From a candidate division WOR-3 bacterium (GTDB lineage Bacteria > Hydrothermota > Tepidihabitantia > B3-TA06), in assembly GCA_965649265.1 (NCBI GenBank), contig CBFGKC010000004.1, positions 122,590 through 186,589 on the forward strand: a DNA stretch of 64,000 nucleotides. Direction: 5' to 3'. Both the position numbers and the translations under genes were made by a program. Of this stretch, positions 4,269 to 41,342 are shown one piece after another. The stretch's first letter is position 1, and every line of letters starts with the position of its first letter. Below the pieces are notes generated by a model. It was not told the origin of the DNA. It made no database searches and saw nothing but the letters and a program-made list of their open reading frames with translations.

Positions 4269-4324
4269 CGGAAATCGAAGATTACCACTTTTGTCGATCG
4301 GCAGCAAAGTAAAGGAGGCGCAGT

Positions 4325-4603
4325 ATGCTCTGGTTATGGATAATACCGGGGGTGATCGTTTTTTTCGGTCTGATAATTCTCATGGGCTCACTCGTGATGT
4401 TGCGCAAGATGCCTTCCATCTCAAAGCCGCTTTCTGAAAGCGATGTCTCGATATGCGCCGAAATCGTTAAGGGGAGGAGGGCGGGGAGGGCGAGGAGGCC
4501 CGTAACACCTTACCCCTTCGTTTGCAGCTGGGCGGTCCGCCACTCGGCCTGCCCGTGCCTGCCGTGCAAAAAACTCGAGCAGGCGAAGTCAGGCACAAAT
4601 TAA
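4325..4603 (+). CDS. Small membrane-anchored hypothetical protein
   Basis: AAGGAGG SD; single N-terminal TM helix; Cys-rich tail. Confidence 0.55.
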   Translation: MLWLWIIPGVIVFFGLIILMGSLVMLRKMPSISKPLSESDVSICAEIVKGRRAGRARRPVTPYPFVCSWAVRHSACPCLPCKKLEQAKSGTN

Positions 4604-4863
4604 CTTCACCTCAAATGTGATCTCACAATCGCAAGGACGAAGTAGGAATCTGGAGTTTTAGCTTTTTTTCCCTCAATTCCTACTGCGACCTGACTTCGAG
4701 GCGTCTATGGGCGTTTCTCTCCGGAATAACACTGTAATACTTTACAATTTTTTTGACCGGCTTCTTCAGCGGGCAAATCGCCTCGAAATCGGGTGAAAAC
4801 CCCTGTTTTGTCCATCTTTTGTCCCACTTTTGTCCAGCTTTTTTTTCAGGGGGTAATAAACGT

Positions 4864-4898
4864 ATCCCCGCAAACGTTCGAAACATCTGCGGGGATAA
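4864..4898 (-). terminator. Hairpin downstream of the 4917-5363 gene (probable terminator)
   Basis: TATCCCCGCA...TGCGGGGATA inverted repeat. Confidence 0.5.
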
Positions 4899-4916
4899 CA
4901 ATTTTTTAAGAGTATT

Positions 4917-5363
4917 TTAGAAGTAAAATCTGAGACCTATACCACCGCCCAGGCCGACATCCGTCGCTGGGTAGAGATAAATGAGCGGGTCAAGTTCTCC
5001 GTAGAAGCTTATCGGTGCGTAAATGAATTCAAGACCGAGAGGTATGCGGCCTGCGATGTTGAAATAGTCATTGGCCCGCATTCCCAGTTGTCCACCAAGA
5101 CCAATGTACGGCGCAAGTTCGCCTCTGCCACTTATAGGGATATTGAAGTGATAAAGGTAACCTGCCTGAACGCCGAGATAGTCAACTATCAGATTCCATC
5201 CCACCGTAAGGTCTATGGCACTTTGACCACCGATCCAGAATTTTCCTGTTATTCCGCTGGGTTCGCCGAATTGGACGCCTAATCCCACATTGCCGTGAGA
5301 CGCCAGAAGCGTTCCCGAGAAAACAGTTAATATGATAACTGATGCAATTACTAAACGTTTCAT
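4917..5363 (-). CDS. Small outer-membrane beta-barrel protein (DUF3996-like)
   Basis: Signal peptide; GLGVQFGEPSGITGK; alternating beta strands; C-terminal GLRFYF barrel signal. Confidence 0.8.
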   Translation of the reverse strand: MKRLVIASVIILTVFSGTLLASHGNVGLGVQFGEPSGITGKFWIGGQSAIDLTVGWNLIVDYLGVQAGYLYHFNIPISGRGELAPYIGLGGQLGMRANDYFNIAGRIPLGLEFIYAPISFYGELDPLIYLYPATDVGLGGGIGLRFYF

Positions 5364-5623: not shown

Positions 5624-6445
5624 ATGTCCGACTTGCTAGACGTTTCCCGTGAGTACCACACCATTGTCAGCAGGCGGCTGGAGGCCAGAGGGTTTTCCAG
5701 CGAGCAGGTTCTCGTTCACAAACGGATACTCGAGTTGGCCGGAACCGCAAAAGACACAAGTGACCTCGAGGGTAAAAAGGAGGCTGAGAACCTCAATTTC
5801 AGACTCGCTCAGGCTCTCTCCATAGATAACTGGCTCGCCAGGGCGAAGGCGGCCTCGGAGTCAGGTGAAACGCTCGCAAAGAAGCTCTTCGAGGAGACCG
5901 CGGACGCTGCCCGCAAGGCAGCGGACCACGCGTCGCTCGCAAAGTCCGTTGACGAGGCGAGCACCCAAGGCACCCAGATGCTAGCAATCCAGGAGTATGT
6001 AAAGAGTTCATTCATCTCCGCGCTCTACGCGATCTTTGCCTATCGCATAACGCACCCGGCCAACGTCGAGGAGCGCAAGAGGCAGAAGGCGAATCTCGAT
6101 ATCCACACTTCCGAGATCAAAAAGAAAGGCTCGAGCTTCGAGCAGCTTCTCGGAGACTTCTACTATAAAAGTTTCGCGCCGCTTTCCGAAGTGCAGTGGA
6201 AGGAAATCGAAAAAATCTACAAGTCCATGCAATCCTCCGAAACCGACAAGGTGGCCCGGAACTCTCTCGAAGACGAGGTCAAGAAGGCGAACGGGGTGCT
6301 TAAGGGCAAGATGACGGAACTCAAGGAGCTACAGGCTTACATCGAATCAACGGGTACGCGGATGGCCTACCTCGGCATCTCCCCGAAGGAAGAACCTGGC
6401 CCATACACGTTCGAAAAAATCTGGGAAGGGGGCAGGGATGAATGA
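5624..6445 (+). CDS. Hypothetical alpha-helical / coiled-coil protein
   Basis: 273-aa ORF with AGGAGG SD and a promoter at 5567-5594; no motif recognised. Confidence 0.8.
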   Translation: MSDLLDVSREYHTIVSRRLEARGFSSEQVLVHKRILELAGTAKDTSDLEGKKEAENLNFRLAQALSIDNWLARAKAASESGETLAKKLFEETADAARKAADHASLAKSVDEASTQGTQMLAIQEYVKSSFISALYAIFAYRITHPANVEERKRQKANLDIHTSEIKKKGSSFEQLLGDFYYKSFAPLSEVQWKEIEKIYKSMQSSETDKVARNSLEDEVKKANGVLKGKMTELKELQAYIESTGTRMAYLGISPKEEPGPYTFEKIWEGGRDE

Positions 6446-7517
6446 GCAGGTGAAGCAGATGGTCGCCGGTTTCAAGCTGGCGTATGAGACGTACAAGGGT
6501 ATGCTTTCCGCGGAGGAGTTCGGTCCGCTCGAAGCGGTCTACAACGAGATGGAGACGATTGCCGAGTCCGCAGTAGACTTCACGGCGTTCAATGACGCGG
6601 CCGCAAAGGTGGACATATTCACTCGCCTTTCCACCGAACTCGGAAAGGCGCAGGCCTTGCTCGACTCCAAACCGAAATCCGAGCGCAAGACGCTTTCGGC
6701 CGAGGGCTTTATTGCCCAGTACCGGACGCTATACGAACAGGCCCAGGCCGCTCCGCATACCTACCGGACGCGCGAGGTATACGAAAAGCTGCTGCCGCTC
6801 GGGGACGGCGCGGAAACGCCACTCGAGGTCGTACGCAAGGCCGAGGATGAGAACCTGTTCCACAGGATAGGGGCTATGGGTGTCTACGACACATACAAGC
6901 TGGATTATGACAAGCTGGATCCCAACGAAGCCCCTTTTAGAGATTTCAGAATGGACGTTTTAGAAATATGCGAGAAGTCTGAGACCGCAGATGAACTAAC
7001 CTACAATGTTGATAGACGCGTGTACGAGTCGCAGAAAGAGATAGCACATGACAACTTCATTACCCAGATGATTGCCAACCTCGTCGGCTCCTTCCTGAAC
7101 CTCGAACTCTCCAAGACCGCAGTACGGACTGGACGGCTCGACTACATCGCCGCGGTCGCCATATACCGTGAAGAAGCTAGAGAGGCGTACCGCATCCTTG
7201 TGGATGAATTCGGCCTTGACTGGGGTAAGTTCATGTCCACCGAGCGCTACAAGAAACGTTTTCTCATGCAGGCGGCTGTTATCCCCGAGACCACTCGCGT
7301 TTTCCAGGCAATGGCACCCGAAAACCTCGAGTGGATGCGGGAGACCATTTTCGAAGAGGTTCTCTCCCCGCTTTCGCTTGCCGACATCATCCTGCGCAGG
7401 TCATCAAACGTTTTTCACCCTCTCGCACTCGAGGAGCATTCCATAAAACACGGCTTAGACGCGAAGCTCAAATCAAGATCGCTCGAACTCGTAAAGGACT
7501 TCTACTGGGCGAAGTAA
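6438..7517 (+). CDS. Hypothetical alpha-helical protein
   Basis: 359-aa ORF overlapping the upstream stop; no motif recognised. Confidence 0.8.
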   Translation: MNEQVKQMVAGFKLAYETYKGMLSAEEFGPLEAVYNEMETIAESAVDFTAFNDAAAKVDIFTRLSTELGKAQALLDSKPKSERKTLSAEGFIAQYRTLYEQAQAAPHTYRTREVYEKLLPLGDGAETPLEVVRKAEDENLFHRIGAMGVYDTYKLDYDKLDPNEAPFRDFRMDVLEICEKSETADELTYNVDRRVYESQKEIAHDNFITQMIANLVGSFLNLELSKTAVRTGRLDYIAAVAIYREEAREAYRILVDEFGLDWGKFMSTERYKKRFLMQAAVIPETTRVFQAMAPENLEWMRETIFEEVLSPLSLADIILRRSSNVFHPLALEEHSIKHGLDAKLKSRSLELVKDFYWAK

Positions 7518-7582
7518 ATCGCTCGAAACCTTTTATTAGCATCTTACGTCATCAATATTGTATCTAAAAAAAGGAGTAGAGC

Positions 7583-7933
7583 GTGAGATGCTTTTTGAGT
7601 TGGATGCTTGCAGTTGGAGCCATACTCGTTCTCGGATGCAGCGGTGTGTCCCAGGCAGGGATAAGGATTGATAATCCCGACGACAAGGCGGTCAAATTTG
7701 CAGGCTACTACGAGAGCGCATCGGGTCGAACCGATATTGACGGCGTAACCAGAGCCACCTATAAGGTTCCGGTTTCAGACACCGGCGATTTCGTCAGAAT
7801 TGCCTTAGTCAAGACCGATACCACCGACAGTGTTGACGAACTCAGGGTCAAGCTTTTCTATGCCGGTCGCCGGGGCATCGCGAGAGTTATAAAACCGGGC
7901 GACAGCGCCATTGTAGAATACAACGTCAAGTAG
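7583..7933 (+). CDS. Small lipoprotein
   Basis: AAGGAG SD; signal peptide with lipobox VLGC. Confidence 0.7.
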   Translation: MRCFLSWMLAVGAILVLGCSGVSQAGIRIDNPDDKAVKFAGYYESASGRTDIDGVTRATYKVPVSDTGDFVRIALVKTDTTDSVDELRVKLFYAGRRGIARVIKPGDSAIVEYNVK

Positions 7934-9176: not shown

Positions 9177-9274
9177 GTTATCAATTAAAAAACGGAGCTA
9201 GGGATGCAAGATACTGCAAGAAAGCGTCTTGGCAGGTGTTTACTGAGGATAATGGCAGAGGGGGAGCCGGTTCC

Positions 9275-12200
9275 ATGGTAAAAAAAGGATCCGTGGATTT
9301 TCCGAGCGGTTTCGAGGTATCAAGGAAGCTTGGTGAAGGGAGCGCAAGCATTGTCTGGGCCGTAAGACGTGAAGGCACAAACGAGGAGTTAGCCTTAAAG
9401 ATCACGGCGAGGCCAGATCCGGCACGCCTGCTCGAGCGCGAGTACGCAATTCTCAGACGTCTGGACCATCCGGGTATCGTCAAGGTATTCGAATCGGGTG
9501 AGTTTAACGGCAGAGGCTTTTTTCTGATGGAATTGATAGAAGGTGAATCTTTTACCTCTTTTTTCAAACAAAAAAAGGAGAGCGTAGGTTTTATTGAGCT
9601 GTTCCTTCAGGTCTTGAGGGAATCGGCAGGGATACTCTCCGATCTTCACAAGCAGGGCGTGGTCCATATTGACGTCAAACCCTCGAATATTCTTATACGA
9701 AAAACAGGGTTTCCGCTTCTTTTGGACTTCGGTTTTGCCGAAGACTATATATTGAGCCCGACGGCAGAACCGTCGGGTACCACCCTTGACTACGCGGCTC
9801 CTGAGCTTTTTTCGGGCGGCCATGTGACGCCTGCTGCGGATATTTATTCACTCGGTGCGATGGCGTATGAAGTCTTGAAAGGGAATAAGCCCTGGATCGG
9901 TAAATCGCCGAGGGAACTCATAGCAGCAAAGCTGAGAGCCTCTCCAGGATTAGGCAAGCTCGAATTCGAGATACCTGCGGGGCTGGAGGGTTTGGTTTTG
10001 CGAATGATAAATCCGGAACCCTCACTGAGGCCATCCGCGGATGAGGTCATACTCGAGCTCGATTGGCTTTCGGGAGGTAAATCTATCGAGATCAAAAAAG
10101 CATCGGTTTTTCTGCCGAGGCTCGTTTTTGGCGGCAGGGAAGAAGAGATGGAATACGTCAGGAAACTGATCTTCGATGAAAAAAAGGTTATATTTCTTTC
10201 AGGTGAATCCGGTATCGGAAAAACAAGATTTCTGAGGGAACTTCGTTTCAAGGCAATGCTTGATGATCGCAAGGTTTTGCTCCTCGAGGGGCGCGGAGCG
10301 CATCTGTCGCTTGTGGATTACCTTTTTGTTTCACTGGGTGTAAACCGTACCGGATCCGGAACCAGCGAGACCCAATTGTCCGATAAGTGGTCCAGATACG
10401 AAAGGATTTCCCAGGAAATAGAAAACGCCGGCTTTGAAGCGTTGTATATTGATTCGCCAGTTGATTTGAACTCTGACGAGAAAGGGCTTATTGGGTACTT
10501 GGCCCGCGGTTTTGATACGAGACTGGGCTTACTCGTTACCCAGGTTCCTGAATTCTTATATCCAAATGCGACGAATTTCAAACTCGAACCTCTGAACGAA
10601 GAGAGGGTAAGAACCCTGGTTTCAAGAACTTTCAGAGGCTTGAAGGGTGAGGTCCGTCTTGCCAAAAACCTTTTTTTACTCGCCGGAGGGAATCCCAGGC
10701 GCACTAACGAACTCCTTGATATACTCTACAACGAAGGATGGCTTTCATGGGACAGGGGCTGGATATACGAACCGGTTAGTGAAGAAAGCACCATTGCCGC
10801 GCAACTCGAAGAGTGGCTTGGAGACAGGGTCGGTCGGCTTGATGGGCCTTCCAGGTTCATTCTTGATTCGCTTGCGGTCGTCGAATCGGCGCTCCCTACG
10901 GAGGTTTTATCCAGGATAATCGGCGAGGATGCGGAACTCGCAATGAAAGGTCTTGCCGAGCATGGGCTTGTCCGCTCATTCTTTTATCTTGAAAAGCCCT
11001 ACCTTGAGTTTGCCGACGACGTTACTAAACCCTACCTTCTTGGTAAACTCCACGGTGGACGCGCAAAGGAAATTTCGAAAACCCTCGCGGAGGCCGTTCA
11101 GGAATATGGCGTCAAGTACTGGGGCCAGGATCTTGACTGCTGGGAGAAGACATGCCTTGCGGATGTCGGGTTGCTTTTTTTCATGTCAGGGTCAAAAACG
11201 AAGGCCGGAACATATCTGATCAAGTCGGCCAAAGACCTGAGGCTTAACTATCACATTGAAAGAGCGCTTGAATATTTGAAAAAAACCATTGAGTGCAGCG
11301 GTGAAGCCAGGTGGAAAAAGGAGGCAATGCAGGAAATGCTCCACATTGCCTATATTACTTATAATCTGAGCGAAGCGGAAAAGATCACATCCGAATTGAT
11401 GCCTCTTCTGCACGATGACCCTGAAGCAAAGGCCGAGGCAATTTCCAGGTTAGCCGCGATATACATGAGGATGGGGCAAAACGACAGGGCCGAGCAGTAT
11501 CTGGATGAATGCGAGAGGATAGTTCCTGATCCTTCTTCGACTCTCTTGTTCAGTATGATGAATGTGCGTGGGTGGATTGCCAACAACCGCAGCAGGTATC
11601 TTGAGGCGCAAGATATCTTTCAAAGAGCTCTTGATATGGCTTCAAGTGATAAAGAGAGAAGGATAGCCCACCAGGGCCTGCTCAGAACCGTTATTTTTCT
11701 GGGGAAAAACGCGGAAGCGCTCGTTCACGCCACCAGGGCGGTCGAATTACTCGAAAAGGGCGGAGACAAGAACGATCTTTGTTCAACGCTAGTCAATATG
11801 ACCGATGTAATGCGCAATCTGGGCATGTATTCTGAAATGGAGAGCTGCATTGAGAAAGCTCTCGCGATAGCGGAGGACGTGAAGAATCCCAATCTCCTGG
11901 CTTTGACTTATGAATACAGGGCTTTCATGTATGCATTGAACAAAAAATATCGCGATGCACTGAATTACACACGGAAGGCGATAGTCTTTTCGACGAAGGT
12001 AAAGAACGAACTCAGATCTATATCCCTGAAAATAAGTGAGGCTCAGTATTTGCACGATACGGGCGAATGGTCTGAAGCAAAAAAGATATATCTTGAAACG
12101 TGGCAGGAGTTGGCAAGAAGCAAAAGTGATGCAGTTACCAGATCGAAGCCCTACTTTTTGAGAGCCTGGGGTGAATTCTTAAGAAGCAGAAGTGAATATT

Positions 12201-14311
12201 CTTCAGCTCTGAGGATTCTTGAAAAAGCGAAAAAAATTGCCGCTGAATTGAACAACGAAACTCTCTCTCAGCACATTGATATCGTGAAGTGCAGGGTTTT
12301 CATTGAGTCAGGACAACTTGATCGGGCAGAACGGATAATTGAAGAATGCGAAACGGCACTAAAGAAACAAAAAGACATCGCAGGTGAGGAGATCTTGAAT
12401 TGGTTGAAAACGGAGCTTTATCTCAGTCAAGGTAAAACTCGCGAAGCTTACCTGCTTTGCAATGAATTGTCGAGTGCGCGTGAGGGAAAGAACAGTGCTA
12501 TATCCTCTGAAATAAATATTACGAGATTGATCGGGAGAACCCTTCTCGGAGTTGGTAAGACAACTGCCGGGTTATCCAAACTGAAGGAAGCAATTGAAGC
12601 AAGTAGAGTTCAGGAAAATCCCTTGGAGTTAGGATTAAGTATCTTCTTTTACGCTGAAGAAAAACTTAAGAAGCATGGGTTTATTGAAGAGGCGATTGAA
12701 GCTTTTGACGAAGCCGAAACAATTTTCAAAAGACTTGGATTGTCCAATCTGGTACGGGACATAGAAAGATTACGTCGGGAGTTCCCCAAGCCTGAACGAA
12801 CAAACCACGAATCAAACAAGTATCTTGAGGGTTTCAAAGAACTTACATCAGTAGTCAATTGTTACCTGGGTAAGGAAAATTATATGAACGTCATCCTGGA
12901 TACCGTTTTGGACTTCACTAAAGCCAATCGAGGCATGATCTTATCATTCGAGGATGGTGTACTTCACCCACTGGCCATAAAAAAACTGGATACAGTCTCA
13001 TTCTATGACGCTGAAAACATCTCCCATACCGTTATTGAAAAGGTGAAGGAGGGTTTTGAACCGGTGTTTACTCCCGATGCAGAACATGACGAGCGTTTCA
13101 AAAATTCCGAAAGCATTAGACTGAACCAGATACGTTCTCTCATGTGCGTTCCTCTTCTGACTGGGGGGAATCTCGTTGGAACGATCTACCTTGACAGCCG
13201 GCAACCAGGATTATTCGACAGTGAAAAGATCCTCTATTTTGAGTCTTTGGGAAATCTTCTGGCTGCGACGCTTGATAAGTCTCTAGAATTCATAAGATTA
13301 AAAGAAAGACTGGCCCTTGTTAAAAGGAAGCATGACCTCGATAACTGTGGGATAGTAATCGGTAATTCACCTCAAATGAGGGAATTTAGTTCCAGAATCG
13401 AACAGGTTTCCAGGTACAATGCTAACGTTCTTCTGGAAGGAGAGACCGGTACGGGCAAGGGCGTTATCGCGAGAATGATTCACGATAAAAGTAACAGAAG
13501 AGAATATGAGTTTTCGTGCATAAACTGCGGGATACTTCCAGAGAATATTTTTGAGTCAGAGCTCTTCGGTTGTAAGAAGGGTGCGTTCACTGGAGCTATT
13601 TCGGATCGTATTGGTCTGCTTGAGTCTGCAAATGGATCCACTGTTTTTTTTGATGAGATAACTAATACATCTCTCGCCGTACAAGCCAAGCTTTTGGAGG
13701 TCATCGAGGATAAGGTGATCCGGAGACTTGGGGAAACCAAGAAGCGCAGCGTGGATTTGAGATTCATTTTCGCAACCAATCGTAATATACAGGAGGAGAT
13801 AGCCAAGGGCAGCTTTCGTGAAGATCTCTACTTCAGGCTGCGCACGTTTGCCTTTCACCTTCCTCCCTTGAGGGAACGCAGGGAGGACATTCCGCAGTTT
13901 ATCAATTTCTTTATGGATAAATACACTAAAGAATTCAACAAGGATATAGTTGATATTGAACCTGCGGCCTATGATGCCTTGATTACTTATAATTGGCCCG
14001 GTAATGTGCGCGAGCTTAAAAGCACCATAGAGAGAGCGGTTCTGCTGGCTCCCGGAAAGGTTCTTACGACCGACCTTTTTGAACGCTGTTTCTTTGAAAG
14101 GGTTTTGAATAATGAAAACGGTCGTGAAACGTACAGGCTAAAGGATGAAGATTTGGTTAATCTAGTGAAGAAAACCCTGAAGGAAACAGATGGGAACATG
14201 ACAGAGACGGCAAAACTTCTGGGAATCTCCAGGCGTCATCTTTACAGGATCATTGAACGATTTGAAATGGTTAAGGAACGAAGTAAAAGCCGCAAGTCCA
14301 AAAAACCCTGA
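9275..14311 (+). CDS. Multidomain sigma54 activator: Ser/Thr kinase - STAND-like P-loop ATPase - TPR - GAF - AAA+ bEBP - Fis HTH
   Basis: Kinase LGEG, ALK, HIDVKPSN, DFG; Walker A GESGIGKT; helical repeats; GAF IRSLMCVPL...GTIYLDS; bEBP GETGTGK, ESELFG..KGAFTGA, FFDE, FREDLYFRL, WPGNVREL; HTH AKLLGISRRHLYR. Confidence 0.93.
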   Translation: MVKKGSVDFPSGFEVSRKLGEGSASIVWAVRREGTNEELALKITARPDPARLLEREYAILRRLDHPGIVKVFESGEFNGRGFFLMELIEGESFTSFFKQKKESVGFIELFLQVLRESAGILSDLHKQGVVHIDVKPSNILIRKTGFPLLLDFGFAEDYILSPTAEPSGTTLDYAAPELFSGGHVTPAADIYSLGAMAYEVLKGNKPWIGKSPRELIAAKLRASPGLGKLEFEIPAGLEGLVLRMINPEPSLRPSADEVILELDWLSGGKSIEIKKASVFLPRLVFGGREEEMEYVRKLIFDEKKVIFLSGESGIGKTRFLRELRFKAMLDDRKVLLLEGRGAHLSLVDYLFVSLGVNRTGSGTSETQLSDKWSRYERISQEIENAGFEALYIDSPVDLNSDEKGLIGYLARGFDTRLGLLVTQVPEFLYPNATNFKLEPLNEERVRTLVSRTFRGLKGEVRLAKNLFLLAGGNPRRTNELLDILYNEGWLSWDRGWIYEPVSEESTIAAQLEEWLGDRVGRLDGPSRFILDSLAVVESALPTEVLSRIIGEDAELAMKGLAEHGLVRSFFYLEKPYLEFADDVTKPYLLGKLHGGRAKEISKTLAEAVQEYGVKYWGQDLDCWEKTCLADVGLLFFMSGSKTKAGTYLIKSAKDLRLNYHIERALEYLKKTIECSGEARWKKEAMQEMLHIAYITYNLSEAEKITSELMPLLHDDPEAKAEAISRLAAIYMRMGQNDRAEQYLDECERIVPDPSSTLLFSMMNVRGWIANNRSRYLEAQDIFQRALDMASSDKERRIAHQGLLRTVIFLGKNAEALVHATRAVELLEKGGDKNDLCSTLVNMTDVMRNLGMYSEMESCIEKALAIAEDVKNPNLLALTYEYRAFMYALNKKYRDALNYTRKAIVFSTKVKNELRSISLKISEAQYLHDTGEWSEAKKIYLETWQELARSKSDAVTRSKPYFLRAWGEFLRSRSEYSSALRILEKAKKIAAELNNETLSQHIDIVKCRVFIESGQLDRAERIIEECETALKKQKDIAGEEILNWLKTELYLSQGKTREAYLLCNELSSAREGKNSAISSEINITRLIGRTLLGVGKTTAGLSKLKEAIEASRVQENPLELGLSIFFYAEEKLKKHGFIEEAIEAFDEAETIFKRLGLSNLVRDIERLRREFPKPERTNHESNKYLEGFKELTSVVNCYLGKENYMNVILDTVLDFTKANRGMILSFEDGVLHPLAIKKLDTVSFYDAENISHTVIEKVKEGFEPVFTPDAEHDERFKNSESIRLNQIRSLMCVPLLTGGNLVGTIYLDSRQPGLFDSEKILYFESLGNLLAATLDKSLEFIRLKERLALVKRKHDLDNCGIVIGNSPQMREFSSRIEQVSRYNANVLLEGETGTGKGVIARMIHDKSNRREYEFSCINCGILPENIFESELFGCKKGAFTGAISDRIGLLESANGSTVFFDEITNTSLAVQAKLLEVIEDKVIRRLGETKKRSVDLRFIFATNRNIQEEIAKGSFREDLYFRLRTFAFHLPPLRERREDIPQFINFFMDKYTKEFNKDIVDIEPAAYDALITYNWPGNVRELKSTIERAVLLAPGKVLTTDLFERCFFERVLNNENGRETYRLKDEDLVNLVKKTLKETDGNMTETAKLLGISRRHLYRIIERFEMVKERSKSRKSKKP

Positions 14312-23494: not shown

Positions 23495-23830
23495 ATGGAT
23501 CCAGACGAGCTTCTCGAGGTAACGGGCGCGACAGGGTGGCGCAAATGGCTGCAGCGAAACCATTCAAGGAAAAAGGAAATCTGGCTGGTTTTCTACAAAA
23601 AAAGTCAGGAAGAAAAAGCATCACCTACGAAGAAGCGATTAAGGAGGCCTTGTGCCTCGGATGGATCGACGGGTAGATAAAATCACTTGATAGTGAACGA
23701 TATTCCATAAGATTCACCGCCAGGAACAAGAGATCTAATTGGTCCACGTCCAATATCGAACGCACCCGGCGACTCCTAAAGGACAACCGGAAGACCAATT
23801 TCGGCTTGGCTATAATTCCAGAGGAAACCC
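23495..23830 (+). pseudogene. YdeI / OmpD-associated family pseudogene
   Basis: WRKWL.RNH...EIWLVFYKK, frameshift near the A7 run (23597-23603), then SITYEEAIKEALCLGWIDG, TAG at 23674-23676, then IKSLD...RFT.R..RSNWS..N. Confidence 0.8.
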
Positions 23831-23845
23831 AAAAAAAGATTCGAC

Positions 23846-23880
23846 AAAAAAACTGCCGGGCGGATACTCTCCGCCCGGTA
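23846..23880 (-). terminator. Rho-independent terminator ending the WxG array
   Basis: Minus strand TACCGGGCGGA-GAGTA-TCCGCCCGGCA-G-TTTTTTT. Confidence 0.85.
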
Positions 23881-23906
23881 TCTATATGTGCTGATTTATT
23901 AAGTGA

Positions 23907-24356
23907 TTATTCTTCGTCGACCGGCAGAAGCTGTTTGCCTTTCCAGAAGCCGTGGTGTATTGCGTCCGGATCGTTGAATGTCTTCCATTCGCCTTTGCCG
24001 ACGCCCGGATAAGACGATACCAGATCAAAGACGCCGAGCCAGTTGCCGATCTCGACGCCGAATTTATCGTAGATGATGCCGTTATCCGTCTTGTAGATGC
24101 CGCCTCCGTCAGTATTGAGTACCGCGTATAGCGTCCCGTAATCGGCATCGCTAATGTCGGATTGCCATTTGCCCTCGAAGTAAGGGACAGTGCCTGCGGG
24201 TCCATTGTCGAAGATGGTGCCTTTCCAGGTACCCTGGATAGCTATGCCTGAAGGGTCGCCCCAGTAGGTACCTTTCCAGTCAGTATTTTCTGCGGAAAGC
24301 GAGCTTGCTCCAAGAACAACGAGAAGCATCGTTAGTGTGAGGAGTGTCTTTTTCAT
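23907..24356 (-). CDS. Secreted WxG-repeat protein, array member 7
   Basis: Signal LGASSLSA; NTDWKGT, GTWKGTI, FEGKW, GTLYA, IGNWLG.F, GKGEW, GFWKG. Confidence 0.9.
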   Translation of the reverse strand: MKKTLLTLTMLLVVLGASSLSAENTDWKGTYWGDPSGIAIQGTWKGTIFDNGPAGTVPYFEGKWQSDISDADYGTLYAVLNTDGGGIYKTDNGIIYDKFGVEIGNWLGVFDLVSSYPGVGKGEWKTFNDPDAIHHGFWKGKQLLPVDEE

Positions 24357-24469
24357 CAATATCCTCCAGTGAGGTTTAATGTTTCTTAACCTCTCCTTGA
24401 AAACACGCTGTATCCTTCATTTGTCATCAATCGCATGACGGCAAGGGATTCCTTTCCGATAGTTCCGTC

Positions 24470-24874
24470 TCAGGGCACCTGCTCGCCTTTCCAGCTTCCG
24501 ATATAGGGTGCCCAGAGCCATGTCCAGTCACCTTTACCATAACCTGGATCGACCGAAACTGTGAAGGTACCGCCCCAGTTTCCGACTACGGAACCATCTT
24601 CGTCGTAGATAACGCCTTTGACTATCTTGTAGTTACCGAGTCCGTCTGACTTAAGGGATGCATTCATAGTTCCCCATTTCGCTTCATCCATCGATGTCCA
24701 TTTGCCTTCAAAGTGAGGGGCTGTCGGTCCGGTTGGGTCATCATATATGGTGCCCTCCCATGTGCCTTGATCCATGCAGAAGTATGTACCTGCCCAGTTC
24801 GTGTTGGCCGCCACAAGCGAACCTGCGCCCAGCATGAGCATGAGCGCTGCAACGGTAAGGAGTATTTTTTTCAT
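24470..24874 (-). CDS. Secreted WxG-repeat protein, array member 6
   Basis: Signal LGAGSLVAA; NTNWAGT, GTWEGTI, HFEGKW, VGNWGG.F, GKGDW, GSWKG. Confidence 0.9.
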   Translation of the reverse strand: MKKILLTVAALMLMLGAGSLVAANTNWAGTYFCMDQGTWEGTIYDDPTGPTAPHFEGKWTSMDEAKWGTMNASLKSDGLGNYKIVKGVIYDEDGSVVGNWGGTFTVSVDPGYGKGDWTWLWAPYIGSWKGEQVP

Positions 24875-24973
24875 CGTATCCTCCTAGGATATTTTTTTGA
24901 TTTTTCGCCCTACCAGGATACACGCTGATTTATTGTTCTGCTTTTATATAAAGCGAGCTAAAGCGTGGTTTTT

Positions 24974-25387
24974 TTATTCCTCGTCGTTCAAAGCTAACTG
25001 GCCTTCCCATTTACCCTTGAACGGGGCGTCTACCCATGTCCAGGTGCCTTCGCCGTGACCGGGCTTGACCATCAATGTAAAGGAGCCGTACCAGTAGCCG
25101 ACGATTAATCCTTTTTCATTATAGAGGGTTCCCTTTATTATCTCATAGTTGCCAAGTCCGTCGGCCTTAAGGGTCGCGTACATCGTTCCTTGCTTGTTTT
25201 CGTCTACTGATGCCCATTTGCCTGAAAAGTAAGGTTTAGGTCCGATGGGACTGTCGTATATAGTTCCTTTCCATATGCCTTGGTCAACGCAAGAGTACTT
25301 GCCTTTCCAGTTTGTGTTGGCTGCAGAGAGTGAGCTTGCGCCAAGAACGAGCGCGAGCGCTAATACGGTCAGCAGTAATTTTTTCAT
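24974..25387 (-). CDS. Secreted WxG-repeat protein, array member 5
   Basis: Start MKKLL at 25387; LGASSLSAANTNWKG, GIWKGTI, FSGKW, GEGTW, GKWEG. Confidence 0.9.
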   Translation of the reverse strand: MKKLLLTVLALALVLGASSLSAANTNWKGKYSCVDQGIWKGTIYDSPIGPKPYFSGKWASVDENKQGTMYATLKADGLGNYEIIKGTLYNEKGLIVGYWYGSFTLMVKPGHGEGTWTWVDAPFKGKWEGQLALNDEE

Positions 25388-25456
25388 TTCTTCTCCTACA
25401 CATGGTTTTGGTTTTTCCTCCTCCTTTAAACACCAATTATTATAGCTATCCGGCAA

Positions 25457-25873
25457 TCAGGGTGATTTTCCTGTCCATTTACCTGACGCAGAACCGTCGG
25501 CAAGCTGCCACGTGCCTTCTGCACGGCTGTCCGGAGTGCCGTCGTAATCCAAGTCGAAGTAACCTTCCCAGTAGCCTATGTTGGTTCCCTGGTCGTCATA
25601 GATTACACCATACGAAACCAAGTAGTATCCGGGTTGAGGAGTGCTGTACACCCCGAAAAGGGTTCCGTGTTCCGTAATGTCGGCGAAATACCAGTTGCCA
25701 GAAAAGTGAGGAACCTGGTCCTCATCAGGATTGTCGTGGATAGTTCCGTTCCAGATACCCGAAAGATCCCCATCGAAAGTTCCTTCCCAGTACGAATCAT
25801 CTGCGGCAAGCCTGTTTACGCCTAAGATACTCAAGACTATGACCAGCGTAAAAGTGAGGAAGGTTTTTTTCAC
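25457..25873 (-). CDS. Secreted WxG-repeat protein, array member 4
   Basis: GTG start with AAGGAGG SD; YWEGTF, GIWNGTI, HFSGNW, IGYWEGYF, AEGTW, GKWTG. Confidence 0.9.
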   Translation of the reverse strand: MKKTFLTFTLVIVLSILGVNRLAADDSYWEGTFDGDLSGIWNGTIHDNPDEDQVPHFSGNWYFADITEHGTLFGVYSTPQPGYYLVSYGVIYDDQGTNIGYWEGYFDLDYDGTPDSRAEGTWQLADGSASGKWTGKSP

Positions 25874-25990
25874 TGTTTCCTCCTTATTTTTTTTATTTTT
25901 TCGCCCTGCCAGGATACACGCTGATTTGGAACCCGGCCGCTCGTGGATTCAACGGCCGGGTCATTCATGGATTTGATTTGTTTTCTTACA

Positions 25991-26398
25991 TCAGGGCAGG
26001 ATTCGCTGGCCGTACCATTCTCCCGTATGGTCAATTTCGAGCTCTGCCCATTTGCCTTCGGCCCGACCGGGCTTGTAGTTCACATCGAAGTATCCCTCCC
26101 ACGATGCCACTACGTTACCCTTGTGATCGTAGGCGACTCCTTTGATTATTTTGTAGATGCCGTGTCCTTCATATGTTAAGTCAGCCAAGAGTTTACCGTA
26201 TTCCGAGTCGTCGCCTAATGACCATTTACCTTCAAAGTGGGGGGCCGCCGGGCCAAGCGGGTCATCGTATAGTGTGCCGGCCCATATACCCTCATGGTCG
26301 CCCCAGAACTTGCCTTCCCAATCCGTATTCGCCGCAACAAGAGAGCTTGCGCCAAGGGCAACGAGGAGCGTTGCAAAGATGAATAACTTTTTTTTCAT
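25991..26398 (-). CDS. Secreted WxG-repeat protein, array member 3
   Basis: LGASSLVAANTDWEG, GIWAGTL, HFEGKW, WEGYF, AEGKW, GEWYG. Confidence 0.9.
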   Translation of the reverse strand: MKKKLFIFATLLVALGASSLVAANTDWEGKFWGDHEGIWAGTLYDDPLGPAAPHFEGKWSLGDDSEYGKLLADLTYEGHGIYKIIKGVAYDHKGNVVASWEGYFDVNYKPGRAEGKWAELEIDHTGEWYGQRILP

Positions 26399-26518
26399 CG
26401 TATCCTCCATACTTGTTTTGTTTATTGTCGCCCTGCCTCATACACGCTGGTTTTGAGGCCGGCCATTTCCGAATGGCTACGGCCGGGTTAGATTCGGATT
26501 AACCTTCTGAAGTTAATA

Positions 26519-26917
26519 TCAAGGCAGTATTCGGTTGCCTTGCCATTTGCCGCATCTATCGACGTCAACCAACGTCCAGCTACCTTCGGCATAGCCTGGT
26601 TTTATGTTCTGATCAAAGTAGCCGTCCCAGACGCCAATTTTGTTGCCATCCGAGTCGTAGATGGTTCCTGTTACGATCTTGAAGATGCCGTGACCGGCGT
26701 ATTCCAGAACCGCATATAGTGTTCCTTCTTCTCCAGTCTCTTCACAAGTCCAACCGCCTTTGAAGATGGGTGGATCCTGTTCGTTGTCGTACAGTGTGCC
26801 TTTCCAGGTACCCGCATTGTCGCCCCAGAATTTTCCATGCCAGTCGGTAGCTGCAGAAAGGGCACTTGCTCCGAGAAGGATTGAGAGTGCAGTCAAAATG
26901 AGAAATGTTTTTTTCAT
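26519..26917 (-). CDS. Secreted WxG-repeat protein, array member 2
   Basis: LGASALSAATDWHG, GTWKGTL, FKGGW, IGVWDGYF, AEGSW, GKWQG. Confidence 0.9.
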   Translation of the reverse strand: MKKTFLILTALSILLGASALSAATDWHGKFWGDNAGTWKGTLYDNEQDPPIFKGGWTCEETGEEGTLYAVLEYAGHGIFKIVTGTIYDSDGNKIGVWDGYFDQNIKPGYAEGSWTLVDVDRCGKWQGNRILP

Positions 26918-26971
26918 GTCTCCTCCTTGTTTTTTCAATTTGTCGCCGCTCCCAGAATACACATGGAAGGA

Positions 26972-27001
26972 CGGGCGTCATCAAAGCTTTGATGACGCCC
27001 G
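26972..27001. repeat. Perfect 30-bp palindrome between array members 1 and 2
   Basis: CGGGCGTCATCAAAG/CTTTGATGACGCCCG. Confidence 0.85.
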
Positions 27002-27129
27002 CCCAGAATAGGTTTAGTAGCCGCTTAAGCCCATTACGCTTTCAAATACAATCTTACTCGTCTTCAAAATGGCAAAGCGACTTCTCAATTTGTTCTTATT
27101 GTCTTTGTTCATGCTCCGGAATGGGCTTT

Positions 27130-27510
27130 TTAAATGCTCCATCCAGACCATTTGCCTGTTTCGCCCGTTTCGAGCGTCCAGGTGCCTTTAGCTAATTCAT
27201 CGTTAACGGCAGGGAAAGTTCCCTCCCATTTGCCGATGACGTTGTATTCTTTGTCAAGGATAGGCCCGGTGACTACATAGTAGTTACCTACGAGTTCGAT
27301 GGTCTCGCCTCTCATATAGCCGTGGGGAGGGGGATCAGTAGGCGATGAGACTTCCCAGGTTCCCCAGAACGGCGGATCGACGTAAGGGGAAAGAGTCCCG
27401 GCCCATGTGCCACTGATGTCCCCGTCGAACGTTCCGGACCAGTTTGAAGCTACAAGACCGCTTGCTCCGATTGTTAGAAGGGCTGCAATAATGAGGGCTT
27501 TTTTAAGCAT
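27130..27510 (-). CDS. Secreted WxG-repeat protein, array member 1
   Basis: IGASGLVASNWSGTF, GTWAGTL, FWGTW, IGKWEGTF, AKGTW, GKWSG. Confidence 0.9.
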   Translation of the reverse strand: MLKKALIIAALLTIGASGLVASNWSGTFDGDISGTWAGTLSPYVDPPFWGTWEVSSPTDPPPHGYMRGETIELVGNYYVVTGPILDKEYNVIGKWEGTFPAVNDELAKGTWTLETGETGKWSGWSI

Positions 27511-27562
27511 AAAAACCTCCGATGCGGTTTAGTTTTTAAGCCCACCCTTTATCCTGCGGGGA

Positions 27563-27590
27563 ATTATAGACCAAACATTGGTTTTGTCAA
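27563..27590 (-). promoter_or_regulatory. Consensus sigma70 promoter of the WxG array
   Basis: Minus strand TTGACA-N16-TATAAT. Confidence 0.82.
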
Positions 27591-27861
27591 CTGTTGTAAA
27601 AAGTTAATCAAATATGATAGTTGCTTTAGTTTTTATATCAAAAAAAGCCTTCAAGGATAATTTATTGTTAAATATATTTAGAATGGAAATTTTGAACAAA
27701 TGTCACTCGTCGCGGTGTGGGATTCGGTAAGAATAGAATTCAACGGAGACTTCCTGCAAATACTTTTCGACCTGTTGATCTGATTCAGAATATCCAGGGT
27801 ATCTTCGTGCGGAATGGGAATTAATCGTTGACAGGCCATGCTTCGAGTATAATATAAAAAC

Positions 27862-28263
27862 ATGGGTTTCCTTGAACGCCTCAAGACTCGCGCGCGAAAA
27901 ATCAAGTGCGATACCTATGCTCTCTGGCTCGCGTACCGCCATCCTCGCACACCCTTGTATGCAAAGGTTTTTTCAGTTTGCGTTGTCGCTTATGCCCTGA
28001 GCCCCGTAGACCTCATTCCCGATTTCATACCGGTACTCGGATATCTCGACGATCTCATCCTTGTCCCTTTGGGTATCTTTCTTGCCCTCCGTATGATCCC
28101 AAGTGATGTAATGGCCGAGTGTCGTGCAAAAGCGGAGGCGGAGTCCTCAATCAAACTCAAGAAGAACTGGACGGCTGGCGCGATAATCATCCTGATCTGG
28201 TTATCTCTGCTTGCTCTTATAGGTTTCCTCGTCTGGAAAGCGTTTCCCCGTAACACCCCGTAA
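27862..28263 (+). CDS. YkvA / DUF1232 membrane protein
   Basis: YALSPVDLIPDFIPVLGYLDD. Confidence 0.92.
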   Translation: MGFLERLKTRARKIKCDTYALWLAYRHPRTPLYAKVFSVCVVAYALSPVDLIPDFIPVLGYLDDLILVPLGIFLALRMIPSDVMAECRAKAEAESSIKLKKNWTAGAIIILIWLSLLALIGFLVWKAFPRNTP

Positions 28264-28370
28264 CACCCGTAACACCCCGTACCCCTACGGGGTATTTTCA
28301 TATGCAGCTTTGTCTAAGGAAATAACACCCGTAACATCCGTAAATCCCGTAAAATCCGTAGCACCCATAA
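28247..28370 (+). repeat. Two short tandem runs of 9-10-nt CCCGTAACA-type units
   Basis: CCCCGTAACACCCCGTAACACCCGTAACACCCCGTA (28246-28281) and a degenerate run at 28323-28370. Confidence 0.75.
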
Positions 28371-28541
28371 CTCACTAATCAGCACCAGAGACAGGCTGAG
28401 TGGCGTGATACGTCTTCCGCCATCTGATCCTGTATCATTCTTAAACAAGCCTGGCAACAGCCCTTTGACATGTTTCCTGAGCCGTATATACTTCTATAAG
28501 GGGAGGGTGGTCAAAAATCTCTTAGTATGCAAGGAGGAAGA

Positions 28542-29681
28542 ATGTCAAAAAAAGGTTTTGCAATTATCTCCCTTTCCATAATCCCTCTCATGCTTTCGGC
28601 TCAGGCCGATTCGCTCTACCGGCCCATATCGGCATCGTGTGTGCCGGGAATTTCGTCAAACGGTTTCCCTGGAACCAACGTCACGACTAACTTCTCTTTC
28701 AACGTCCTCGGCGGCATCAATGCCGGAGTCGTGGGTTTCGAACTCGGTTCCCTTCTTAATATCAACGCGAAAGGTATGACAGGTTTTCAAATCTCAGGCA
28801 TCACAAACTTCACGGGAGGCAACGTCTCCGGTGTACAGATAGCTGGGGTTAACAACCTCGTGATTGGCGACGTGAACGTCGCTCACCTTGCGGGCGTTTT
28901 CAACGTCGCATTAGGAAACCTGAACGGAGCCCAGCTTGCGGGCGTTTTCAATATCGCAGGCGGGCAGGTCAATGGCGCACAGCTTGCCGGCGTTTTCAAT
29001 CTGGCCGTCGGTGGTGTCAAAGGAGCCCAGCTCGCAGGTCCTTTGAACATCTCTATCGGCGATGCGCCAGTGCAGCTCGGCGTGACTAACATCGAGACGG
29101 GCCAGACCTTTACCCAGCTGGGCGTAACCAACATCGCCATCAAATCCAGCGGTCTTCAGCTCGGCGTCTTCAACTTCGCGGCAGAGCAGGAGGGGGTCCC
29201 CATAGGAATAGTGAGTGTTGCCGGCGACGGCTGGTATCACTTGACCTTCTGGGCGGATGAGACGGCCCCCGTGAGCGTTGGCTTCAAGATGGGCTCAAAG
29301 CACATCTACAACATCTACACTTACGGCTACAATCCTCTTGGCGATACAAAGCACTCGCGATTCGGCCTCGGGCTCGGAACCCGCATACCTCTTGATCCTT
29401 TCTATGTCGATGTCGATGCGATAGCATACCAGATGAATGAAGGTGTGAGTCCCTGGGGCATCACCGGCTACAACGGTTTAAGCCAATTGCGAATCATGGC
29501 CGGTTTGAGTATCCTGCCCGGACTTAGAATCTTTGCGGGTCCCACTCTCAACGTCTGGAATTCATCCCAGTTTGACGGGGAAACCATCCCGTCCTTCGGT
29601 CTCTTCCTCGCTGATTTTGACGCTCAAGGGTTCTATACCGACATCTGGCTTGGATTCTCGCTCGGCGTAGAGGTTTTCTAG
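28542..29681 (+). CDS. Outer-membrane protein with GxQxAGxxN repeats (LA_2272-like)
   Basis: Signal peptide; 15-aa repeats GAQLAGVFN; C-terminal barrel ending GVEVF. Confidence 0.82.
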   Translation: MSKKGFAIISLSIIPLMLSAQADSLYRPISASCVPGISSNGFPGTNVTTNFSFNVLGGINAGVVGFELGSLLNINAKGMTGFQISGITNFTGGNVSGVQIAGVNNLVIGDVNVAHLAGVFNVALGNLNGAQLAGVFNIAGGQVNGAQLAGVFNLAVGGVKGAQLAGPLNISIGDAPVQLGVTNIETGQTFTQLGVTNIAIKSSGLQLGVFNFAAEQEGVPIGIVSVAGDGWYHLTFWADETAPVSVGFKMGSKHIYNIYTYGYNPLGDTKHSRFGLGLGTRIPLDPFYVDVDAIAYQMNEGVSPWGITGYNGLSQLRIMAGLSILPGLRIFAGPTLNVWNSSQFDGETIPSFGLFLADFDAQGFYTDIWLGFSLGVEVF

Positions 29682-38964: not shown

Positions 38965-39459
38965 ATGGACATGAGAAACGATTCACACTGCGGGCTTTAC
39001 TGCGGCAGCTGCCTCGTGATCCTCGGTGCAAAGCGCGGGAAGCTCAAAGCCCTTGCAAGACAGTGGAAGTGCACACCCGAGGACCTCGAATGCAACGGAT
39101 GCAGGTCCGAAAAGGTCACGAAATTCTGTTCGGAATGCACCATTCGCGACTGCGCGAGGGAGAGGGGGGTAGGCTTCTGTATAGAGTGCGGCGATTACCC
39201 CTGTCATCACTACAAGAGGCTGAAAGAGCTTTCAAAGGAGCGTCCGCATCTGAGGCTCCAGCCCGCCGAACTGGAAAGAGTCCGTGCGCTGGGTCCCGAT
39301 CAATGGATGGGGTACCAAAAAAAGCGCTGGACTTGCCCTGAGTGCGGGGAGATGTTTGCCTGGTACGAAGAGAAGTGCTCTAAGTGCGGGGTAAAAGTCC
39401 GATCGAGCGTCGAGGAAGTTCAAGAACACGGTCTCACCGAGTATCCCCTTGACGTGTAG
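38965..39459 (+). CDS. DUF3795 Cys-rich protein
   Basis: CGLYCGSC, C.GC, C.IR.C, C.EC..YPC and a CPECG tail. Confidence 0.85.
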   Translation: MDMRNDSHCGLYCGSCLVILGAKRGKLKALARQWKCTPEDLECNGCRSEKVTKFCSECTIRDCARERGVGFCIECGDYPCHHYKRLKELSKERPHLRLQPAELERVRALGPDQWMGYQKKRWTCPECGEMFAWYEEKCSKCGVKVRSSVEEVQEHGLTEYPLDV

Positions 39460-39471
39460 GAGAGAAGGTTC

Positions 39472-39948
39472 ATGGAAGAACGCTACGATTCAGTATGCGG
39501 CATATACTGCGGAGCGTGTTTCGTGCTCGCGGCCCGCAAAAGGAACGATCTGGAATCAATCGCCCGCATGTGGAATTGCAAGCCTGACCAACTCATTTGC
39601 TACGGGTGCAAATCAGGTCAGGTATCGGACTCGTGCAAGCCATGCGAGATAAGGCCGTGTGCTGAGGCAAAAGGCCACGCGTTCTGCATTGAGTGCGAGG
39701 CTTTCCCCTGTAAACTTACAGGGCTTTTTCACGAAAACAAAAAAGTTAAACCGCATCTAGCCCTGGTTTTTAGAGATCTGGAATCAATAAAGGAGAAAGG
39801 CGTCGCAGTCTGGCTAGATGAGCAGGCTTCTCGCTGGTCATGCAAAAAATGCGGAGCATCCCTTTCGTGGTACGATGAGAAATGCCCTGGGTGCGGAGCA
39901 ACGTTCCGCAATGCCAGGGACGAAGCCGCTGATTTAGGTCTTTTGTAA
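39472..39948 (+). CDS. DUF3795 Cys-rich protein
   Basis: CGIYCGAC with the same Cys pattern. Confidence 0.85.
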   Translation: MEERYDSVCGIYCGACFVLAARKRNDLESIARMWNCKPDQLICYGCKSGQVSDSCKPCEIRPCAEAKGHAFCIECEAFPCKLTGLFHENKKVKPHLALVFRDLESIKEKGVAVWLDEQASRWSCKKCGASLSWYDEKCPGCGATFRNARDEAADLGLL

Positions 39949-40865: not shown

Positions 40866-41342
40866 ATGGATTTCAGATACGATACTTACTGCGGGCTCAA
40901 CTGCGGGGCGTGTCCGGTCCTTGGAGCAAACGAACGCGGTGATGAGGAGTGGTTAAGAAAAGCCGCGGAAGAGGACGAATGCACAATTGACGATCTTCGA
41001 TGTCATGGTTGCAAGACCGACTCTACCGCAATGTACTGCACCGGCTGCGAAATGCGTTTCTGTGCGAAGGACAAGGGGCTTGAGTACTGCAGCGAGTGCA
41101 CCGATTTTCCATGTGAGATAATTACTGACTTCCGCAACGACAGGCATCCCCATCACTCCGCGATATTCAAAAATCTGCGAACCATTCGCGAGAAAGGCCT
41201 CAAGACCTGGTTGGAGGAGGAGAGGGTGCGCTGGTTGTGCCCCGAATGCGGCACGCGATTCTACTGGTATTCACAATACTGCTCCGGCTGCGGCATAGAG
41301 TTGTACAACTCAAGCAAAGAAGAAAAGGACCTTGACATATAG
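40866..41342 (+). CDS. DUF3795 Cys-rich protein
   Basis: CGLNCGAC with the same Cys pattern. Confidence 0.85.
   Translation: MDFRYDTYCGLNCGACPVLGANERGDEEWLRKAAEEDECTIDDLRCHGCKTDSTAMYCTGCEMRFCAKDKGLEYCSECTDFPCEIITDFRNDRHPHHSAIFKNLRTIREKGLKTWLEEERVRWLCPECGTRFYWYSQYCSGCGIELYNSSKEEKDLDI

Follow-up and report, generated by a model that had tools for sequence, protein, structure and literature searches.

The window analysed here, a stretch of 64,000 nucleotides of DNA from a candidate division WOR-3 bacterium, carries a tandem array of seven genes for small proteins that are rich in tryptophan and glycine and are predicted to be exported. The proteins constitute a new, undescribed, phylum-restricted sequence family within a known fold class, so far found only in uncultured bacteria of the WOR-3/Candidatus (Ca.) Stahlbacteria type. 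They are predicted to fold as soluble eight-stranded beta-barrels. With a probability of roughly 0.4, we read the array as encoding binding modules without enzymatic activity that are exported and strongly expressed; they would have one rigid scaffold in common, and their differences would lie in their surfaces and in the loops at the open end of the barrel.

The seven-gene array and its family

The array consists of seven co-oriented open reading frames (ORFs) on the minus strand that span positions 23907-27510, with no other gene within it. The genes are numbered g1 to g7 on that strand, and start codons were placed at the MKK/MLKK starts that match homologues. For g5, the mechanical ORF start lies at 25456 and the MKK start at 25387 agrees with the homologues. 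An earlier note on this DNA had described seven tandem co-oriented paralogs with such starts and no enzyme or transporter among them. Both statements are borne out, and the proteins are 126-149 amino acids (aa) long. A family hidden Markov model (HMM) scores the seven proteins at E 1e-36 to 1e-55, so the array is not a product of chance. Searching six-frame ORFs of at least 80 aa in the 64-kb window with the same HMM revealed no eighth copy.

The first gene, g1 (27130-27510; 126 aa), is a type A paralog placed on the 19-row type A side of the tree described below. It carries a GxFP motif, ends in GWSI and has a family HMM E value of 1.4e-36. The other six are type B paralogs. The nearest relative of g2 (26519-26917; 132 aa) is the family member P0002, at 92% identity, and g3 (25991-26398; 135 aa) is itself family member P0001. 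The most acidic protein is encoded by g4 (25457-25873; 138 aa), with an isoelectric point (pI) of 4.05, and g5 (24974-25387; 137 aa) has the C-terminus NDEE. The g6 protein (24470-24874; 134 aa) has nine Trp in 111 mature residues, and g7 (23907-24356; 149 aa) is distinguished by loop insertions and a C-terminal VDEE. Pairwise identity of the mature domains is 32-59%, and the paralog genes are 56-70% identical at the DNA level. The alignment of the seven full proteins has 26 invariant columns (21 in the mature-domain alignment). Every W and G of the register proposed at the outset (WxG, GxWxGT, FxGxW, G(T)L, G..Y, WxGxF, GxW and GxWxG) falls among those 26. Trp accounts for 5.3-8.1% and Gly for 14-17% of the mature domains, compared with 1.7% and 7.9% in 24 other proteins of the window. 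The mature domains are also acidic and hydrophilic, with a pI of 4.05-5.84 and a grand average of hydropathy (GRAVY) of -0.46 to -0.78.

Each protein begins with a Lys-rich, hydrophobic leader of the Ala-X-Ala type that has no lipobox Cys. These leaders support the proposal that the proteins are secreted, which is a prediction of export. The description of the leaders as mostly LGASxL is exact for four of the seven (g2, g3, g5 and g7); the remaining ones read LGAGSL (g6), IGASGL (g1) and ILGVNRL (g4). Lipoproteins processed by signal peptidase II were considered and rejected, as no Cys occurs in any of the seven leaders. LPAM_1 matches in Pfam are found in seven of 54 family members, with a best E value of 0.14 that is below the cut-off. 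The leader would be cut by signal peptidase I, and the proteins would then be soluble in the periplasm or beyond, in a diderm host. The single cultured isolate reported for the phylum WOR-3/Stahlbacteria has inner and outer membranes (PMC12285271). This diderm organization and the Cys-less Sec leaders together make the periplasm the simplest location to expect.

Many type B proteins of the family (P0003, P0005-P0007, P0009, P0010, P0012, P0013, P0015 and P0033) end in a short acidic tail, DEE, EEE or EDE, after the last strand. In the window, acidic C-termini are encoded at 24974-24985 (g5) and 23907-23918 (g7). Other C-termini in the family include RILP, and type A proteins end in GWS[IYN].

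Searches of Pfam, NCBIfam and PADLOC gave no matches above chance for the seven proteins. When Pfam was run on 54 family members, no Pfam family was hit by more than seven of them. A profile search of PDB sequences returned nothing significant, with antibody heavy chains and a capsid protein at E 0.04-0.6. The initial impression that no named family could be recognised is thus upheld. The Pfam family PF14231, named 'GXWXG protein', was considered and rejected, since it was matched by one of the 54 members at E 0.35. In the ESM Atlas, the nearest clusters are hypothetical proteins of Acidobacteriota and Pseudomonadota (0.86-0.88) and DUF6006 (0.82), all below the 0.9 lead threshold, and recognition of the family is below the norm. 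Among the papers listed in literature searches on Stahlbacteria, on hypothetical and beta-barrel proteins of WOR-3, on glycine kinks and on tryptophan corners, none describes the family.

The family is rare. It comprises 31 clusters among 5.77 billion, and of 1.84 billion clusters at 50% identity a profile recovered 22 short representatives. A type A profile adds eight further type A clusters. All relatives are 123-154 aa long and annotated as 'hypothetical protein', and the only named sources are metagenome-assembled genomes (MAGs) of WOR-3 or Ca. Stahlbacteria. Three related genome loci (L001-L003) were identified, two of them in Ca. Stahlbacteria MAGs, with an alignment of 12 B-type sequences that would let loci with type A genes alone escape.

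Nine longer proteins (360-1440 aa, E 2e-8 to 8e-4) were evaluated as fused forms of the family and rejected, as each matches only through 4-9 short stretches. Eight of the nine belong to unrelated repeat families (three with an HA domain, two with DUF3659, and one each with CHASE8, RHS/WXG100 and YkuD), and one has no Pfam match. We treat these hits as motif-level matches to the 'G-x-I-Y-D-x-x-G-x-x-I-G' hairpin. A search aimed at longer forms came back empty, a result that carries little weight. The motif is that of the strand 5-6 hairpin of the family and also serves as the repeat unit in unrelated DUF3659/beta-flower-like proteins (P0048 and P0051). It appears to be a widely reused beta-hairpin sequence.

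A phylogenetic tree, from which four long-branch rows (P0044, P0046, P0050 and P0052) were left out, falls into 19 rows of type A and 41 of type B, with support of 99/92 for the split. The A side includes g1, three proteins of L001 (a-c) and one of L002 (a); the B side includes g2-g7, L001 d, L002 b and the L003 protein. GxFP was rejected as an exact marker of type A, since the 15-row set that carries it needs two changes on the tree; an approximately unbiased test does not reject a single clade (p 0.32). Four of the six B genes pair closely with proteins from other samples: g2 with P0002, g4 with P0032 (100/97), g5 with P0005 (100/96) and g7 with P0008 (100/100). The pairing of g6 with P0015 is weaker (94/77, with a 0.42 branch), and g3 has no close counterpart, its sole near match being its own entry. 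Because B genes pair across samples, the duplications are old and retained rather than a recent amplification.

Counting copies with the family HMM, as the earlier note had proposed, gave one A and six B genes in the window, three A and one B in L001, one A and one B in L002, and a lone B gene in L003. Type A precedes type B in each of the three multi-copy loci with a readable orientation (the window, L001 and L002). A further type A protein, P0049, shares 38% identity with g1, and tblastn does not find it in the window. The contig given for it has 214,737 bases, as does the one given for g3 (P0001), so the genome may hold an additional, unlinked type A copy.

Predicted fold and Trp/Gly core

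AlphaFold2 models were obtained for one protein of each type. The g3 model, built from an alignment of 54 sequences, has a predicted local distance difference test (pLDDT) score of 87.9 and a predicted TM-score (pTM) of 0.77; the g1 model, built from 19 sequences, reaches 87.7 and 0.76. Both contain eight strands, with block pLDDT of at least 87 in g3 and at least 92 in g1, and both have low confidence for residues 1-20. The mature part of 105-126 residues consists of eight predicted antiparallel strands only, and in both models the chain ends 1-3 residues past the last strand (DSSP). Aligning one half of the sequence against the other with hhalign (residues 34-75 against 95-133) gave a probability of 87% and E 3.7e-6. 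The eight-strand pattern that had been proposed from the letters is therefore matched by confident models for g3 and g1, and the hhalign result backs its two-fold (4+4) pseudo-repeat.

The 50 Foldseek matches listed from the PDB are almost all soluble eight-stranded up-and-down (meander) barrels. The best match of g3 is the de novo barrel 6d0t (E 1.2e-4, target-normalised TM-score (TMt) 0.58), and the designed barrel 6czi reaches TMt 0.63. Further matches of g3 are the C-terminal barrel of NHBA (5o1r, TMt 0.61), hemophilin (7re4), the N-terminal barrel of PvdP and fHbp, followed more weakly by nitrophorins and Bla g 4 with query-normalised TM-scores (TMq) of 0.42-0.46. For g1, the matches are fHbp, GID4, NHBA, hemophilin and Cap15 at TMq 0.53-0.60, none with E of 1e-3 or below. 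The best match among the viral models of BFVD is a Cap15-like barrel (TMq 0.61), and a model labelled 'avidin family' stands at rank 22 with TMq 0.49. As similar scores are obtained with barrels as unrelated as GID4, Cap15 and designed proteins, we regard the likeness as one of fold and not of family membership. AlphaFold and Foldseek, both suggested beforehand as checks, gave eight-strand models whose listed neighbours are almost all barrels, and nothing that places the proteins in a characterised family.

The closest structural parallel to g3 is with the de novo eight-stranded barrels BB1/mFAP (6d0t, 6czj and 6czi), which align at TMt 0.58-0.63 over about 110 columns. Designed and array proteins alike have about 110 aa, eight strands, meander topology and, on our reading of the array proteins, core-facing glycine kinks with aromatic packing, which the design study describes (10.1101/2020.10.22.346965). 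The designed barrels share no ancestry with the array proteins (identity 9-17%), and the array family has far more Trp and a 4+4 pseudo-repeat.

Among natural proteins, the barrels of NHBA, fHbp and hemophilin (TbpBBD/lipoprotein C, type 11 secretion cargo) are the best neighbours of both g3 and g1, with TMq 0.52-0.60 and a root-mean-square deviation (rmsd) of about 3.8-4.3 Å. They are Sec-exported in diderm bacteria, as is predicted for the array proteins. Type 11 cargo is described as a C-terminal barrel with an N-terminal effector or handle domain, encoded next to DUF560 outer-membrane secretins in Proteobacteria (PMC12282271). In the array, by contrast, the barrel is the whole mature protein and the host belongs to WOR-3. 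Membership of the type 11 cargo was rejected on three counts: there is no N-terminal effector or handle domain, none of the 54 members matches the TbpBBD/lipoprotein C Pfam families at E up to 10, and Pfam scans of 54 window ORFs and 16 ORFs of L001-L003 found no DUF560 secretin.

The earlier note had suggested an avidin/lipocalin-like barrel, which holds at the level of the fold and fails at the level of the family. As is predicted for the array proteins, the calycins (lipocalins and avidin/streptavidin) are small, secreted, eight-stranded up-and-down barrels. Avidins are Trp-rich, have polar residues that contact biotin and form tetramers, and the lipocalin barrel is followed by a C-terminal alpha-helix. 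The nitrophorins and Bla g 4 score lower than the neighbours described above, there is no sequence match, and the array proteins have no C-terminal helix. None of the 54 members matches an avidin Pfam family at E up to 10, and the PDB profile search yields no chain of avidin or streptavidin at this limit; membership in that family was rejected on these sequence grounds. The 50 Foldseek matches listed include no such chain. Lipocalin membership was likewise set aside, as no lipocalin Pfam family is matched by any of the 54 at E up to 10 and DSSP assigns no helix after strand 8.

The conserved part of the family is one face of the strands. The 37 positions in register with the invariant Trp and Gly have a mean variability of 1.08 bits, compared with 2.60 bits for the 35 positions on the opposite face (p=8e-8). 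The in-register face is 33% Gly and 16.5% Trp, followed by Leu, Phe, Ala and Ile. The opposite face is 14% Tyr, 13.5% Thr, 11.7% Lys and 9.1% Glu, and also carries Ser and Asp. From this periodicity we infer that the Trp/Gly face points into the barrel and that the polar face meets the solvent. A polar non-core face argues for a soluble and not a membrane barrel. Residues that are invariant across the family are almost exclusively Trp and Gly, and the conserved positions include two to three Phe as well as six Trp that are near-invariant. The 54 sequences have no invariant polar residue, which argues against an enzyme or a metal site.

Core-pointing glycine kinks relieve strain in eight-stranded barrels, and pairs of the aromatic-rescue or mortise-tenon type fix the strand register and are critical in water-soluble barrels too, according to the design study (10.1101/2020.10.22.346965). 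Under these rules, the Trp/Gly motif is best read as a glycine-kink/aromatic-rescue core that determines the fold, rather than as an active site.

Variation is concentrated outside this core. The loops were originally said to diverge, and they do, with a mean of 2.54 bits compared with 1.82 bits for the strands; however, the outward strand face is equally variable at 2.60 bits. Within five paralog-lineage groups, the outer face is the most variable class (0.60-1.43 bits, versus 0.11-0.49 bits for the core). Loops 1-2, 3-4, 5-6 and 7-8, at the barrel end opposite the termini, average 2.82 bits compared with 2.26 bits for the other loops (p=0.011). Calycins admit ligands at the barrel end opposite the termini, and it is at this end that the array family has its more variable loops.

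If the models are right, an undescribed family has arrived at a well-known fold, the soluble eight-stranded meander barrel, by way of a Trp/Gly core that is extreme and very regular. It would offer a natural test case for the glycine-kink/aromatic-rescue design rules and possibly a scaffold for engineering that is both small and stable. We see no sign of a new kind of molecular system; what deserves note in this family is a natural barrel of glycine kinks and Trp, together with the A/B pairing that has been retained.

Expression signals and possible function

A sigma70-type promoter, TTGACA-16-TATAAT, lies upstream of g1 on the minus strand (27563-27590) and matches the consensus hexamers at 12 of 12 positions. 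An intrinsic terminator on the same strand (23856-23878) has a 9-pair stem with eight GC pairs followed by a T-run (-20.4 kcal/mol, z -4.9). A GGAGG ribosome-binding site precedes each of the seven genes. The L001 array also has TTGACA-16-TATAAT and a terminal hairpin, and its spacers are short (26-48 nt). That the arrays of the window and of L001 both carry the consensus promoter suggests strong and co-ordinated expression, and the array marks a set of exported proteins that is probably abundant in WOR-3/Stahlbacteria.

One promoter and one terminator had been assigned to the array. The promoter stands, and the terminator is the only canonical one, but GC-rich hairpins without a T-run follow g1 (26969-27004, -31.4 kcal/mol, z -8.2, with none of 200 shuffles folding as well), g2 (26459-26486, -17.7 kcal/mol, z -2.7) and g3 (25930-25962, -23.1 kcal/mol, z -4.2), all on the minus strand. 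The intergenic gaps are 212, 120, 117, 69, 99 and 113 nt, long enough to leave room for internal regulation. Transcription from one promoter to one terminator is the simplest reading, and internal processing or regulation is likely. The hairpins after g1-g3 could attenuate read-through or stabilise the upstream mRNA, and could thereby set different amounts of the paralogs.

The gaps also contain a 23-nt box on the minus strand. It is found as an exact pattern match upstream of g4 (25901-25923), where none is expected by chance, and with one mismatch upstream of g6 (24905-24927), in each case about 30-45 nt before the start codon. These two copies are 86% identical over 35 nt, whereas the coding DNA of g4 and g6 is only 56% identical. 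Alignment reveals weaker copies upstream of g3 (26428-26449, 82% identical to the g4 copy over 34 nt), g7 (near 24395-24420) and g2 (near 26950-26975). The box is absent from the L001-L003 arrays. It may be an RNA processing site, a site bound by a regulator or an internal promoter of another type. A sigma54 promoter was rejected, as the box does not fit that consensus by eye. An Rfam search of 23500-28600 gave only a chance-level DnaX match (E 0.69).

Taking the array as a set of exported binding modules, the old paralog lineages would each have their own ligand, or their own envelope or target molecule, to recognise. The modules would differ on their exterior, especially at the barrel end opposite the termini. 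Subtypes A and B would be co-expressed at a high level in a fixed order, with the hairpins between cistrons possibly tuning their relative amounts.

Several observations weigh against this proposal. The difference between odd and even loops is modest (p=0.011), and the conserved part is the interior, so that a ligand held inside the barrel would be common to the paralogs and not differ between them. TM-scores are moderate (0.5-0.6), and E values of 1e-3 or below are reached by two PDB matches for g3 and none for g1. Whether the barrel closes, whether its Trp/Gly face points inward and whether it has a cavity are judged from sequence periodicity and the type of Foldseek hits. The periplasmic location draws on a different WOR-3 organism and on there being no recognised further sorting signal. 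No neighbouring gene is conserved between the window and L001-L003, and the context gives no functional hint.

The proteins may instead build an A/B hetero-oligomeric or polymeric envelope structure, an abundant assembly in the periplasm or at the surface to which the B paralogs would contribute as alternative or extra subunits. The two types are split by the deep 99/92 branch and lie next to each other, A before B, in the window, L001 and L002. Similar pairs appear to be co-located elsewhere, as GX441_12230 (B) and GX441_12235 (A) have neighbouring locus tags, and for P0012 (B) and P0028 (A) alike the reported contig has 1571 bases. The perfect consensus promoter shared with L001, which suggests high and co-ordinated expression, would also suit such an assembly. 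We nevertheless consider it rather improbable, because a conserved subunit interface predicts the opposite of an outward face that is the most variable class even within lineages. Moreover, the L003 B gene stands alone among unrelated genes, type A also occurs at separate loci (GX441_03175), and the A:B copy numbers vary from 1:6 to 3:1 and 1:1. The strong conservation of the inward-facing residues raises another option, an avidin-type carrier or sequestering protein whose Trp-lined interior binds one small hydrophobic or aromatic molecule common to all copies, with the copies raising dosage or differing in localisation or partners. The conserved Trp and Phe of the core, the high expression inferred from the promoter, and the ligand binders among the nearest structures (designed fluorogen binders, nitrophorins, hemophilin, GID4 and Cap15) would all be consistent with it. 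This is unlikely in our view, as Gly paired with Trp at one third of the inward positions is a signature of core packing and no invariant polar residue is available to hold a ligand. Neither avidin nor lipocalin families of Pfam are matched, and old, retained paralog lineages argue for differentiated roles.

In a defensive role, which would resemble that of small beta-barrel inhibitors such as MliC/PliC and the serralysin inhibitor, each protein would neutralise a different incoming lytic enzyme or toxin in the periplasm. Small, acidic, exported, non-enzymatic and surface-diversified proteins in tandem would suit an immunity array of this kind. We find it quite unlikely, given that no toxin, secretion-system, integrase or phage gene occurs among the scanned ORFs of the window or L001-L003 and PADLOC has no match. 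The only Pfam inhibitor match in the 54 members is a chance-level SSI hit (E 0.25), and the recurrence of the subfamilies in different samples contrasts with the patchiness of acquired immunity islands. Integral outer-membrane barrels of the OmpX/OmpW type would also have eight strands and a signal peptide; the last residue of several type A proteins is aromatic (GWSY), and a few Foldseek matches are membrane barrels, with poor rmsd. Such barrels are highly improbable here, as the best structural matches are soluble and the non-core face is rich in Tyr, Thr, Lys, Glu, Ser and Asp, which with the GRAVY values given above is at odds with a hydrophobic, lipid-facing exterior.

Beyond the binding-module proposal, we speculate, as a doubtful but attractive idea, that the family is a natural repertoire of one scaffold with many surfaces. 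A rigid glycine-kink/Trp barrel would have been diversified by a deep-branching phylum into paired A/B and multiple B specificities, either as a periplasmic or secreted, anticalin-like recognition set or as an envelope structure specific to WOR-3. If so, this would be a function-bearing family without a characterised relative and a natural counterpart of the design rules for de novo beta-barrels.

Genomic surroundings

The array is flanked in the window by genes for a DUF1232 membrane protein, a 384-aa repeat protein, a dihydroorotate-dehydrogenase-like protein, an S9/Dpp5-like peptidase, methyltransferases and redox enzymes. Pfam scans of 54 window ORFs, 15 of which were also scanned with NCBIfam, turned up no gene for a secretion system, toxin or integrase and none of phage type. 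The L001 and L002 arrays adjoin SIMPL/DUF541 and sugar epimerase genes. In L003, the regions on either side of the single type B gene (3204-4923 and 5850-7643) encode peroxiredoxin, desulfoferrodoxin, ferritin, an ODP-type beta-lactamase-fold protein and rubrerythrin, an oxidative-stress neighbourhood that could be coincidental synteny.

Three other features of the window were observed. A 1691-aa ORF (9236-14311, plus strand) combines a Ser/Thr protein kinase, an AAA_16/STAND-type NTPase, tetratricopeptide repeats, GAF, a sigma54-interaction AAA+ domain and a Fis-type helix-turn-helix; judged by these predicted domains, it is an unusually large fusion of a kinase and an enhancer-binding protein. 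The 384-aa repeat protein (28527-29681, plus strand) has a signal-peptide-like N-terminus and many tandem repeats of the 'GAQLAGVFN' type. It has no Pfam match and a sub-threshold match to the NCBIfam VC2662 family (E 9e-9, 35 bits versus a cut-off of 140), and its own promoter-like site (11 of 12 matches) lies at 28465-28492. Finally, three DUF3795 paralogs are encoded within 2.4 kb of the plus strand (38965-39459, 39472-39948 and 40866-41342), interleaved with a metallo-beta-lactamase-fold gene.

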